A stretch of DNA of 64,000 nt from Octopus vulgaris (lineage: Eukaryota), in contig OX597830.1 of NCBI GenBank assembly GCA_951406725.2, positions 77,562,001-77,626,000 on the forward strand, read 5' to 3'. The position numbers were made by a program, and so were the translations under genes. Positions 4,557 through 61,960 of the stretch are shown piece by piece. Position 1 is the stretch's first letter. Each line of letters starts with the position of its first letter. The notes beneath the pieces are model-generated. The model did not search any database, was not told where the DNA came from, and saw nothing but the letters and a program-made list of their open reading frames with translations.

Positions 4557-5076
4557 CTACTAATATAGGATGAAGTTTTTTTCTCTACAGAAAAAAATTC
4601 CATCAAGAAATGTGGCAGCATATTAAAATACCTTTACGGTTAAAATTATAAACAACTTATAAGTAAGGGCTAAAAAAAAAAATATTTCAAAGCCAATATG
4701 CTGATGATAGACAATTAAATCGTCAATTTCCACATATAATCTACTCGCTACAGCAAAAAAAAATCGAAGAACTGAAGTCGGGCAAACTGACCGTTAGAAT
4801 TTCTAAATTTCGTTATCTCTATATTGAATCAATTTCGGAATTAATCTCATAAAAGATTTATTCGTCTTCAGTAGAGCTTACGAGAGAATATAAATAAGAT
4901 ACTTACATGCGCCAACGAAATTTAGAAATTCTAACGGTCAGTTTGCCCGACTTCAGTTCTTCGATTTTTTTTGCTGTAGCGAGTAGATTATATGTGGAAA
5001 TTGACGATTTAATAGTCTATCATCAGCATATTTCAAAATTTTCTTTTTTCAGCCCTTACTTATAAGGTTGTTTATA
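4557..5076 (-). mobile_element. Fold-back, (TA)n-embedded retroelement remnant (probable PLE pseudo-LTR with inverted copy)
   Basis: Inverted arms 4647-4814 and 4914-5076, a 99-nt loop containing the hammerhead, an unpaired ~90-nt tail 4557-4646, and TA repeats on both sides. Confidence 0.65.
4817..4876 (-). ncRNA. Type I minimal hammerhead ribozyme candidate (PLE-type)
   Basis: CUCUA-CUGAAGA-C-GAAUAAAUCU(UUUAUG)AGAUUAAUUC-C-GAAA-UUG(AUU)CAAU-A-UAGAG: 5-bp stem I, 9/10-bp stem II, short near-palindromic stem III, AUA cleavage triplet; C.C mismatch at the base of stem II. Confidence 0.75.
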
Positions 5077-5143
5077 TATGTATATACATATATATATATA
5101 TATATATTTTTTCTTCTTTTTTTATATGCAATACTTACCAATA

Positions 5144-5590
5144 GGCGCAGGAGTGGCTGTGTGGTAAGTAGCTTGCTTACCAGCTACATGGTTCCGGGTT
5201 CAGTCCCACTGCGTGGCACCATGGGCAAGTGTCTTCTTCTATAGCCTCGGGCCGACCAAAGCGTTGTGAGTGGATTTGGTAGATGGAAACTAAAAGAAGC
5301 TCATCGTATATAAGTGTATGTTTATATATATATATATATATATATATATATATATATATATATATGTGGGGGGGGTATGTATATATTTGTGTGTCTTTGT
5401 CCCCCAGCATCGCTTGACAACACATGCTGGTGTGTTTGCGTCCACGTCACTAAGCGGTTCAGCAAGAGGGACCGATAGAATAAGTACTAGGCTTACAAAG
5501 AATAAGTCCTGGCGTCGATTTGCTCGACAAAAATCGGTGCTTCTGCATAGCCGCAGTCAAATGACTGAAACAAATAAAAGAATAAAGAAA
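5144..5590 (+). mobile_element. SINE family A (tRNA-derived head, internal TA/CA microsatellite, GTAAAAGA tail)
   Basis: Head GGCGCAGGAGTGGCTGTGTGGTAAG..GGTTCAGTCCC with A/B boxes; many copies in the window. Confidence 0.9.
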
Positions 5591-6899
5591 AGAAAGAATA
5601 CAAACATCTATAGCAAAATTTTTCCAGGGCCTCTTAAAATACTATCATATGTCCCCAATTTACAATTTTGTTGTGTGGACCCCTCAAAAATCTTATATGG
5701 ATCATCAGGACCATCAGGACCATATGGGCCCTAATTAAGAACCACTGGTGTGGACTGTCAAATGATGCACGAAATGTAGTAGCGACATCAAATAGTAAAA
5801 TTCTTTAGGTAAACAACTGGTAATGTGGAATAAAGAAATGATTTATTCTTGGTTCCAGTAAAAGAAAAACAGCTTACACGGGGATCATACATTTGAAGTC
5901 ATATATTATGTCTTTCTGTGGACACACCAACTTGAAATCTAGAGCAGATACGAATCAAAAAAAAATTTGATGCAGTTCGGTCAGATGCATTTGTTCTCTA
6001 CACAGAGAATATGAGAAAAAAAACATTTGTTTATATTTGTCGCAACTCACTGATTGCGCAAGTGTGTCGTTAATAAATGTGCACTTTGCATCGCACTGCA
6101 AATGTAATTCTCACGCATACGTGTAATCATACATAATTCTTACATACACACAAGCATACATACATGCATACATGCATTCATATATGCATGTATGCATTAA
6201 TGCATGCATGAATACATACATGCATTTTTACATATGTACATGCATACTAGTACGAGTATGTGTGCACATATACACGTGTTCGTGCAGTTGTACATGTATG
6301 TGTGTGTGTGTGTGCGTTTGTATGTGAGTGTGTCCGTCTGTTTGTCTGGACATGCATCTGAGTGTGTATGTGCGCGCGTTTATGTATGTTAGCAAAGAAT
6401 TTCAAGTTTGAATTAAGGCGAGTGAAGAAAGTAAAAACGAAGAATATCAGACGGAAAAGGAAGAAGGAAAGAAAGAAAGAAAGATAGATAGATAGATAGA
6501 TAGATAGATAGATAGATAGATAGATAGATAGATAGATAGATAGAATGAAAGATAGAAAGAGAGAGAGAGAAAGAGTTAATGCATTAATGAATAAATGCAA
6601 GAAAGAAAAGGAAAAAGACGCAAAGAAGAAATGAACAAAGATGTATATGAAAGAATGAGAGGAAAGAAGATGAAGGATTGAACACAAACCGGAAGTGGAA
6701 CCCACATAGTAAAGTGAAATATTTAATATTGATTAATGGCAGAAGGAAGTAGTGGTAAAGGAACTAAAACTATTGGTTAATTAGCGATGGTAATTATGGT
6801 GGTGGAAGTGAAGGGTCTTCATAGTGTTTGGTACTGTCGGAGAAATGATGATGGTGGTAGTGGTGGTAGAGAGGGAGAACATTGATAGAGTTGTTGGTG

Positions 6900-7510
6900 G
6901 TATCGGCGGCGGCGGCAGCAGCAGCGTCAGTGGCGGTGGTGGTGGTAATGGTGGTGGTGGTGGTGGTGGTGGTGGTGGTGGTGTAGGTCATGATGGCTGT
7001 GGTGGCAGTGTATGGGTGATGGTGGTTTAGGTCGTGGTAACGGTGTAGATGGTGGTGATGTAGGTGATGGTGGTGTTGTTCTCGTGTTTGTAATGTTGAT
7101 GGTCGTAATGGTTCTTGTTGCTGTTATTAGTTCTGATGATGATGGTGATGATGCTGCTGCTGCTGATGATGATGATGATGATGATGATGATGATGATGAT
7201 GATGATGATGGTGGTGGTGGTGGTGATGATGGTGGTGGTGATGATGATGATGATGATGATGATGATGATGATGATGATGATGATGGTGGTGATGGTGATG
7301 CTGCTGATGATGATGATGATGATGATGATGATGGTGGTGATGCTGCTGCTGCTGCTGCTGCTGCTGATGATGATGATGATGATGATGATGACGATGATGA
7401 TGATGATGATGATGATGATGATGATGATGGTGGTGGTGGTGGTGATGATGGTGGTGGTGATGATGATGATGATGATGATGATGATGATGATGACGATGGT
7501 GGTGGTGGTG
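6900..7510. repeat. Compound (GGT)/(GAT)/(GCT) trinucleotide tract
   Basis: Direct reading. Confidence 0.95.
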
Positions 7511-7637
7511 GAATGACATGGGTGTATGATATGTGTGTGTGTCTGTCTGTCTGCGTGTCTGTGTGTGCGTATCATGGTTATGGTGGTAGTGCTGGTGTCG
7601 TGTTGTATGAGTGTGGTTGCGGTGTTAGGATTATTGT

Positions 7638-8005
7638 GTAAGAGCAAGCCATTCCTCACGGAGCAATCCTTTAACACACGAACAGTCGGTCGGATAACAG
7701 ATTCATCCTCCCGGTTTACACCCTGTCTCTTCCTGGCTAAGATCCACACGACACGATCTGGCTCAATCCGATTTGCTACAGTGAAAATCGCACGGGGTAT
7801 GGCGTGTCATTTTAAACATATTACATATTACATATTTCAAAAACCTTCTCGAGTCCTACCGACTCATAATGGCCGGTTTACCGGTTTCCATGTCGTATAT
7901 ATTTTCTACTTTGACGGGACGCCGGTCCTCAAGAGCCCAACGCATTGCCCGGTCCAGGAATCGAAACCACGAGTCTAACACCTAACCACTAAGTCACGCG
8001 TCTCT
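7638..8005 (-). mobile_element. tRNA-derived SINE (family E, single copy here)
   Basis: Minus-strand head GACGCGTGACTTAGTGGTTAGG..GGTTTCGATTCCTGGACCGGG. Confidence 0.6.
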
Positions 8006-60310: not shown

Positions 60311-60475
60311 TTTCTCTGCCCTAGGTGTCAGGAAGACACTTAGTAAGAAATCGAAACGGAATGGAAAGAAGATGATAATGAAAACAACAACAAAAACAAC
60401 AATAATAATAATAATGATAATAATAATAATAATAATAATAATAATAATAATAATAATAATAATAATAATAATAAC

Positions 60476-61020
60476 AGTGGCTCTCATGGCTTCTGATCTT
60501 AACTGATTGGAAGTGTTATCATGTACATTGTTTTGTCTTGGTATAAAAGATGGGCTACAGCAAATATTCTGCTCAATACCACAGATTTGCTTGTCAGTTG
60601 TTTGACCTTAACCAGTTGAGCATGTCCCTTAGTGGCTGACGATATGTGCATCTCTGATCACCAGCAGAAGTAGTGGGGGAGCATCATAGCCATGTGTTGA
60701 GAGAGATTCTTTGGGGTTTGAATAATTCACCTCTGGAAACATGGGTGGTTCTTTCAACATCCTTAAACAACCCTTATTCAGGGACCTTTTGAGCGGGATG
60801 GGCTACTCAACCTGAAGAAAATTCTAACTGGGCCCCACCTGCAAGGTCATGTGCTGTTTATCTTGATATGAGATCACCATGTCGCGCACATATGGTTGTG
60901 ATGCATGTGCCTGGTATACCCTTATCAGACGGGTAGTCATGATGGGTATATTGGGCTTCGTATATTTTACCCCAGTGTCACTTTGATGGCATGCACTGCT
61001 CTCTCACTCAATAATAATAA
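60476..61020 (+). mobile_element. (TAA)n-tailed non-coding retroelement (LINE 3' UTR or non-autonomous partner)
   Basis: ~540 nt between TAA tracts; reverse-complement copy at 11523-11970 and fragments at 10570-10675 and 11012-11470. Confidence 0.7.
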
Positions 61021-61030
61021 TAATAATAAT

Positions 61031-61164
61031 AATAGAAATCAGCAAAATGTGGAACCTGAAGACTAAAACAATGCCTGTTGTCATAGGTGTCTTGAGAATG
61101 ATAGCAAAAGGGGCTGATTGCTACCTAACTCAGATACCAGGAAACCCCAAAATGGCAGAAATTT
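61031..61164 (+). mobile_element. R4/Dong-type LINE fragment (restriction-like endonuclease region)
   Basis: IEISKMWNLKTKTMPVVIGVLRMIAKGADCYLTQIPGNPKMAEI directly after (TAA)n. Confidence 0.75.
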
Positions 61165-61470
61165 ATAGGTTTGGTACCCCCACCCCGATAAAATAAGTAC
61201 CTTGTTTTAAAAAAACAAGTACTGTAGTCGATTTGTTTGACTAAAATCTTTTAAGCAATGTCCTTGTATAGCCGCAGTCTATACAAGGTAATAACCTTAT
61301 AATGTGATTTTCAACGCTTTTATCCGGATAACGGCTACCAAATGTTATTATTCGGTAGGACTTCTCCTGTCACGAGATATACAATTGGAAATTTGCAAAT
61401 ATCCTTGAAGCACACAAAAAAACGGGAATACGAGATGGATTGAACTGGCTTTATATATATATATATATAT

Positions 61471-61960
61471 AATTAAAAATGAGGGTGTCCAAGAGACACC
61501 AACATGCCGAAATAGCAGTCGAAATTCTGACTATAAAAACCACGTTAAGTGTTCATATCGTACCATGAGATAAGACAGAGGGACAAAATATACAAGCAAA
61601 AGTTATTGAATAATTCAAGATCTAGGATTTCTAGTTTTGCTTTAAATAAGCTTTACCGTCATCAATTGAATATATCAGGGGTATGACGGTAAAGCTTATT
61701 TAAAGCAAAACCAGAAATCCTGGATCTTGAATTATTCAATAACTTTTGCTTGTATATTTTGTCCCTCTGTCTTATCTCATGGTACGATATGAACACTTAA
61801 CGTGGTTTTTATAGTCAGAATTTCGACTGCTATTTCGGCATGTTGGTGTCTCTTGGACACCCTCATTTTTAATTGTTAAAAATTATTACCTTTGTACGGT
61901 ATTTTTTTCATGCTGGCCACTTGATAATATTGATACTTAAATATCGATATTATCCTCATA
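61471..61960 (+). mobile_element. Fold-back, (TA)n-embedded retroelement remnant (probable PLE pseudo-LTR with inverted copy)
   Basis: 192-bp inverted arms 61471-61662 and 61683-61874 with 2 mismatches seen, a 20-nt loop, an ~85-nt unpaired tail, and TA repeats on both sides. Confidence 0.7.
61613..61671 (-). ncRNA. Type I minimal hammerhead ribozyme candidate, C3U core variant
   Basis: AUUCAA-UUGAUGA-CGGUAAAGCUUAUUUAAAGCAAAACUA-GAAA-UCCUAGAU-C-UUGAAU: 6-bp stem I. The sister copy on + (61683-61732, 5'-truncated) has the better palindromic stem III AUCCUGGAU-C. Confidence 0.62.

Follow-up and report, generated by a model that had tools for sequence, protein, structure and literature searches.

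Minimal hammerheads of Penelope-like elements and the octopus window

The closest described counterparts of three elements found in a 64,000-nt stretch of the Octopus vulgaris genome (contig OX597830.1, positions 77,562,001 to 77,626,000; this whole stretch is called the window) are the Penelope-like elements (PLEs) with their minimal hammerhead ribozymes. These ribozymes are known for an extra base at position 9.1, a palindromic helix III with a dimer model, low activity and U3-A8 variants, and their G10.1-C11.1 pair was called highly conserved (PMC4209133; all literature is used here through the available parts of each source). The three window elements are labelled A (4557-5075), B (56518-56924) and C (61471-61965), and their copies were surveyed within the one source assembly of 2.8 Gb and 227 contigs. 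Entire families of hundreds to more than 20,000 members inherited changes in the hammerhead core while keeping the fold, from which it is likely that fast cleavage is not needed for their spread.

Inverted arms, tails and TA targeting have already been published for PLEs (PMC4209133, PMC8557442), the tail extension occurring at one end only (PMC8557442). Neptune PLEs combine a reverse transcriptase (RT) containing a DKG motif, a CX2-5CxxC linker, an endonuclease (EN) of the GIY-YIG type at the C terminus, (TA)n insertion and a hammerhead near the 3' end (PMC4209133; PMC8557442). Hydra-clade and Chara PLEs have a palindromic stem III of 3-5 bp, a loop of 1-2 nt and, among motifs counted as canonical, mismatches at the stem II base (U.U, U.C and C.A, the last in PLE-X1_cBra), with a preference for (TA)n in Hydra (File S2 of PMC8557442). 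Elements without an open reading frame (ORF) are described as well, namely the retrozymes that lack long terminal repeats (non-LTR retrozymes), which are built of head-to-tail units with one type I hammerhead each (PMC7229834; bioRxiv 2026.07.22.740005), and non-autonomous Chlamys elements such as MRC1 (PMC8557442), both of which depend on an autonomous element. The genomic tail of a PLE was found to be delimited by two internal start sites of its RT; insertion in vitro was not impaired in hammerhead mutants, and cleavage needed the element's protein (PMC11167929). The role of the hammerhead in PLEs is an open question (PMC8557442, PMC11167929).

The sequence-only reading of the window had proposed three minimal hammerheads with non-canonical cores and palindromic stems III, embedded in (TA)n and able to escape standard searches, and had assigned them to one diversified lineage of PLE or retrozyme-like mobile elements. 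All three motifs were confirmed. A relaxed scan recovered A and B together with an unrelated AT-rich hit at 10096, as compared to a single hit in 20 locally shuffled windows taken together, and missed C because of a private G.U pair in the window copy. The expected escape from standard searches was seen, since a strict scan detected only A, and the 150 top-ranking of 397 Rfam matches included no hammerhead family. All six element ends adjoin (TA)n. The proposed core states (C.C, C.A, C3U and A6U) are present; the extra A, which had been counted as a departure, belongs to the published PLE consensus. Stem III is palindromic in A and B, and is an imperfect palindrome in the window copy of C because its hammerhead arm carries two private changes. 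Mobility of the PLE or retrozyme type was upheld. The single lineage had to be abandoned, because B is part of an autonomous Neptune-type PLE without similarity to A or C; alignments of its tail to those of A and C revealed no likeness, with 418 and 208 of 1000 shuffles reaching the score.

Element B and core position 6

A B-type 3' untranslated region (UTR) at locus L081 directed us to a GIY-YIG domain with a CxxxxCxxC-type linker lying upstream. A genome search with this domain returned 15,571 candidates, 150 of which were scored, and four B-family stretches picked for long open frames were fetched. In all four, near-intact frames of 787-853 aa encode GIY-YIG and motifs of an RT (DKG in two, YIDD in three; RVT_1 E-value 1e-7), and an A6U hammerhead lies downstream of the ORF in three. 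A PLE-type RT is followed by the C-terminal GIY-YIG in a single ORF, and the linker of the CX2-5CxxC type between RT and EN reads CSRPRCRTC in L146, L147 and L149. The family is biased towards (TA)n, as TA x3 follows 35 of 43 3' ends (the background for TA at segment ends is 5-10%). These motifs mark B as the 3' terminus of an autonomous Neptune-type PLE, the clade name being taken from motifs and not from an RT tree.

The B hammerhead fits the published minimal consensus (CUGANGAH G..C GAAAN palindrome NUH with a U-rich flank) save for position 6, which is U and not A, unlike in the published Neptune PLEs (PMC4209133; PMC8557442), in about 95% of copies. Pattern-match states were counted among the first 100 matches listed, except for the A family, where all 81 were listed. 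A pattern leaving the core free matched 10,170 times in the genome, and position 6 was U (95), C (3), A (1) or G (1) by hand count, while position 7 was A in 43, U in 23, G in 22 and C in 12. When only stem II and GAAA were demanded, 23,193 matches were obtained and the canonical A6 occurred in 3 of those counted. With stem II as the sole criterion, 46 copies were selected; conservation among them was 93-100% in stem I and at core positions, and the variable sites were N7 (39%), N17 (70% A and 28% U) and the two bases outside stem I (46% and 57%). From this pattern, selection on the hammerhead appears to have continued with U6 in place. A sister family of B (L135:1043, L283; 11,996 matches) has U4C in 73 and CUG in 24 of the matches counted; its CUG copies are probably not all products of CpG decay, because CCA occurs in only 3.

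Post-insertion decay was ruled out as the source of A6U, U4C, C3U and C.C, each of which is common to many dispersed copies, and does explain the private changes in the window copies of B and C. To judge from these distributions, the core changes were inherited before amplification at the level of families or subfamilies. This holds for A6U, U4C/C3U and the C.C of a subfamily, but not for the A family as a whole, which is mostly canonical (G10.1 in 57 of 81).

The strict conservation of B could also mean that full activity is attained by the variant hammerheads, and by A6U in particular, as stem III dimers or when bound by the PLE protein, and that they thus represent true alternative catalytic cores. 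Only positions known to be free vary in B, U6 being 96% conserved across subfamilies in which N7 takes all four bases; rare natural hammerheads with A6C, U3-A8, U4C or U10.1-U11.1 are active (PMC3088659), and PLE hammerheads may be assisted by protein (PMC11167929). Nevertheless, natural A6C is slow, at less than 0.1/min (PMC3088659), pairwise mutagenesis found low activity for CUGA-turn mutants other than the C3-G8 swap (PMC9901934), and the octopus families fixed differing changes (A6U, U4C, and C3U without G8A), which looks like tolerance and not like one new solution. We regard full activity as unlikely. A bolder version, to which we give only slightly more credence, is that an active family of more than 20,000 copies runs on a cleaving A6U hammerhead kept by selection and that, together with its U4C and C3U sisters and the seven stem II base states described below, it forms a natural allelic series of 'invariant' positions that PLE protein or dimerisation could rescue.

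With regard to novelty, A6U, U4C and C3U are absent from the PLE motif table in the available part of File S2 of PMC8557442, and A6U in hammerheads was found neither in the available material of PMC4209133, PMC8557442 and PMC3088659 nor in literature searches. For the C.C and C.A states there is precedent, since U.U, U.C and C.A are listed in that table. What is new are single core substitutions fixed in young abundant families, A6U above all. The available main text of a 2026 repeat annotation of Octopus vulgaris reports 31 recently active Penelope-like families and does not treat ribozymes; its repeat library may hold the A and C units and their relatives (PMC13282606). Searches combining A6U or C3U with hammerhead, and hammerhead with octopus, returned nothing describing these families. 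A 2017 study by Lunse is said to cover about 150,000 PLE hammerhead variants and could already list A6U.

As single core changes separate the young and successful families from canonical relatives close to them, matched natural pairs are available (A6U versus A6, U4C or C3U versus CUGA, C.C versus G-C), which permit a direct test of how much the rate of cleavage matters for spread. Descriptors that demand CUGANGA would miss tens of thousands of motifs in the octopus genome. A, B and C themselves are ordinary repeats, and nothing points to a function for the host.

The non-coding clan of A and C

A and C represent non-coding units of 510 nt (A, L013) and 479-480 nt (C; L046, L053 and L057) that are arranged head-to-tail, with one type I hammerhead in each. 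Units also occur solo or inverted, and some copies exceed one unit. Older relatives, termed C', D, D2 and E, were found at neighbouring loci and link A to C through D and E (E-values of 2.5e-11 for A-D, 1e-9 for A-E, 4e-6 for E-C' and 7e-88 for C'-C). First-look candidates numbered 865-4253 per clan query; these figures are not copy numbers, and the families overlap in them. A GTAAGT donor-like site upstream of the hammerhead is shared by A and by full-length C, C' and D units; a GT..AG joint for it was not found in contigs from runs guessed to be RNA, the kind of which is uncertain. Tandem units, an inverted 5'-truncated copy and a tail at one end only give A and C an insertion anatomy of the PLE type. 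They share with Hydra-clade and Chara PLEs the short palindromic stem III, small loop and mismatched stem II base, and differ from them in being non-coding, in extending about 250 nt past the hammerhead and in the U4C or C3U of young C. This probably non-autonomous clan with its long tail is previously undescribed, whereas much of the anatomy in the window (the extra A, palindromic stem III, fold-back arms, a tail, TA targeting and stem II base mismatches including C.A) was already on record for PLEs.

The tail motif common to A, C, C', D and E is homologous between A and C, as had been proposed. The local score of 33 (shuffled 21.5+/-2.7) was reached by 5 of 1000 shuffles, and in a global alignment of the last 130 nt none of 1000 was as good. 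Homology to A ends about 25 nt before the motif (TA next in 15/15) or 60-79 nt after it (22/25), and homology to C ends 30-40 nt before (30/30) or about 65 nt after (40/40); 17 A and 24 C segments continue through the reference end, and 3 and 5 end elsewhere. The clan tail of about 100 nt is thus bracketed by two precise TA junctions, and in the window it is present in the main arms of A and C and absent from their inverted arms. It corresponds to the one-ended tail extension of PLEs (PMC8557442). The fold-back arms of A (4656-4814 and 4914-5066) pair in three pieces with 86-100% complementarity and those of C (61471-61662 and 61683-61874) with 99%. A MITE (miniature inverted-repeat transposable element) or microRNA-like hairpin, suggested by a match to Rfam MIR2670 below the cut-off, was rejected because the arms differ in length from copy to copy and a second arm is missing from many of them.

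In the clan, stems I, II and III differ in sequence by family and retain their pairing. The stem II base takes seven states, G-C or C.C in A, C.A in C, A.A or an unpaired A in C' and E, G.U in D and A-U in D2, while the adjacent pair is always G-C in the family majority. The 81 matches of the A family have G (57), C (20), U (2) or A (2) at this position, so that the C.C of the window is a subfamily state. Among the counted copies of the young C family (162 matches), 55 are U4C, 44 C3U and 1 canonical. B and young C otherwise follow the hammerhead pattern of three stems round CUGANGA, GAAA and NUH, each with one core substitution. A tree of 31 copies (25 C and 6 of 10 C'), built with the core left out and not fully settled by bootstrap, places canonical-core copies outside and the U4C and C3U copies in a young radiation with terminal branches near 0.01. 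It contains a four-copy C3U subgroup with 100/100 support and a single change of stem II from GGC to GGT, with the partner change, after U4C. In the window, the two private changes weaken the self-duplex of the C hammerhead as compared to its own plus-strand arm (-4.4 versus -8.3 kcal/mol).

It is conceivable that these hammerheads are catalytically dead and that the fold is retained solely to bind protein or stabilise RNA, or travels along passively in recent master copies. The canonical CUGA is missing from 99 of the counted young C copies, and U4C creates, by sequence, a hairpin competing with the first stem II strand. Insertion persists in vitro with hammerhead mutants (PMC11167929). Copies do not preferentially begin at the predicted cut site, with 5' ends there in 1 of 54 A, 2 of 100 D, 0 of 102 C and 0 of 35 B copies. 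However, G5, G8, A9, GAAA and the NUH site do not vary among five clan families whose alignment is confined to patches, stems I-III changed yet stayed paired, and N17 in B is nearly always A or U (45/46), as expected of a cleavage site. We consider dead hammerheads decidedly unlikely. The 5' ends of C are sparse within 40 nt of the cut site (2/102, versus 5-9 per flanking 20-nt bin), which may be an alignment or structural effect.

A and C might instead be strict non-LTR retrozymes, whose tandem transcripts would be cleaved into single units, closed to circles and copied by an RT running round each circle. Like retrozymes, which have been reported to derive from PLE pLTRs (bioRxiv 2026.07.22.740005), A and C form non-coding tandem units that each contain one type I hammerhead, and some of their copies exceed one unit. 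Against this, the units measure 480-510 nt and the described circles about 170-400 nt (PMC7229834), the hammerheads are of the PLE type with altered cores and not canonical ones with loop 1-loop 2 contacts, the majority of copies stand alone or are truncated or inverted, and tandem copies can also be obtained from uncut tandem transcripts. The frequent inverted arms and the tail of about 100 nt likewise distinguish A and C from both retrozymes and MRC1, and a retrozyme identity seems doubtful. The positions of all features are compiled below.

Elements A, B and C and their parts in the window
Feature	Positions	Strand	Remarks
A main arm	4557..4913	-	5'-truncated copy of a PLE-style, non-coding unit of 510 nt with donor-like site, hammerhead and tail; (TA)n at 4535-4556 adjoins its 3' end
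A clan tail motif	4612..4647	-	ACC-loop-GGT, T run, ATGCTGCCAC; within the ~100-nt tail
A hammerhead, type I minimal	4817..4876	-	CTCTA CTGAAGA C GAAT..ATTC C GAAA TTGATTCAA TA TAGAG (4876-4817); core CTGAAGA, C.C at stem II base, palindromic stem III; predicted cut after 4822
GTAAGT splice-donor-like site	4901..4906	-	upstream of A hammerhead
A inverted arm	4914..5075	+	5'-truncated; stops ~25 nt short of the tail motif; adjoins (TA)n at 5073-5107
Element B	56518..56924	-	5'-truncated 3' UTR of an autonomous Neptune-type PLE; TA tracts on both sides
B minimal hammerhead	56609..56644	-	CTTT CTGTAGA A GAGC GTAG GCTC GAAA CG TA ATAG (56644-56609); core CTGTAGA (A6U), extra A9.1, 4-bp stem II, CG palindrome; predicted cut after 56613
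C inverted arm	61471..61682	-	only complete hammerhead of C; no tail; joins (TA)n at 61452-61471
C hammerhead	61613..61671	-	ATTCAA TTGATGA C GGT..ACT A GAAA TCCTAGA TC TTGAAT (61671-61613); core TTGATGA (C3U), C.A at stem II base; predicted cut after 61619
C main arm	61683..61965	+	from the ~480-nt non-coding unit, truncated within the hammerhead core; with tail; joins (TA)n
C clan tail motif	61881..61920	+	ACC-loop-GGT, T run, ATGCTGGCCAC; in the main-arm tail

Inverted repeats of 29 nt (93%) flank C at 61426-61454 and 62068-62096, which suggests that C inserted into a small terminal-inverted-repeat transposon.

Proposed mobilisation and candidate partners

The reading that we favour, and hold to be fairly probable, is that B is the 3' end of an autonomous PLE and that A and C are copied in trans by a PLE RT-EN that nicks (TA)n and uses two start sites at the tail, from RNA that is cut slowly. 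The enzyme would start cDNA synthesis at two fixed points on either side of the shared tail, which might serve as a protein-binding or initiation region, and the fold-backs would be by-products of insertion. The hammerheads would cut A and C RNA slowly, with weak or protein-assisted cleavage. Selection would keep the fold and most of the core and tolerate individual changes within the CUGA turn or at the stem II base, because insertion would not need fast cleavage. The two internal RT start sites, dispensable hammerhead and protein-dependent cleavage known from PLEs (PMC11167929) would account for both the shared motif and the spread of altered cores. What was observed comprises the ORF link of B, the unit lengths, the occurrence of units in tandem and inverted, the pair of TA junctions and the inheritance of core changes through successive expansions. 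The lack of 5' ends clustered at the cut site also speaks for this reading, as does the finding that, at the loci tested, no PLE protein match in PLE order lies upstream of an A or C unit.

Several points weigh against this reading. Given its strong conservation, the B core could belong to an active ribozyme no less than to a slow one, the clan tail exceeds the 30-40 nt described for PLE tails, and cleavage, circles, transcript ends and splice junctions are predictions from the DNA. In addition, partial sampling of six PLE groups and inspection of the published Octopus Naiad consensus yielded neither an autonomous element with the clan tail nor one sharing the 3' end of A and C. The clan tail was absent from the family B stretches, from an old AT-rich Neptune-like family (30 loci), from a young family with 781-aa frames together with other GIY-YIG hits (30 of 148 loci, 4 extended), from a Poseidon-like family (30 of 117 loci), from Hydra remnants (30 of 52), from a Nematis-like element (2 loci) and from the published Octopus Naiad 3' ends. 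As the autonomous partner was not found in these samples, the mobiliser of A and C is inferred from anatomy, and so is their dependence on an autonomous element.

The young 781-aa family (L410-L413, for example G000:C16:33682200-33690200) is a very young Neptune-like PLE family with many identical GIY-YIG hits; its frames are intact, an ORF-like region lies upstream, and tandem TGATGACGTC repeats occur in its 3' UTR. It is a candidate trans-mobiliser of A and C, yet without the clan tail; a D unit beyond the TA tract at L411 is a separate insertion. A word resembling TTTTCG(T)GAA/TTTTCGAA stands at the extreme 3' ends of clan D (L048:1880-1925), the 781-aa family (L412) and B (L061), a weak likeness that is possibly a shared signal.

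A fourth hammerhead-bearing PLE 3' end, overlooked in the earlier reading, lies at 37020-37160 on the minus strand of the window and is 77% like the 3' end of the young 781-aa family. Its hammerhead, at about 37142-37098, has the core TTGATAA, which shows the published U3-A8 covariation, and is followed by a tail of about 38 nt that runs into (TA)n. Elsewhere in the genome, many diverse and decayed Hydra-clade remnants were encountered (L260-L289, 52 motif matches), while the available published table lists one Octopus family; the terminal sequence of L272 matches the Hydra-1_oBim hammerhead published for Octopus. The window further contains a tRNA gene on the minus strand (46907-46978, 67.7 bits) and a degenerate tandem repeat of 33-34 nt at 8419-8795 with a higher-order period of 101 nt.

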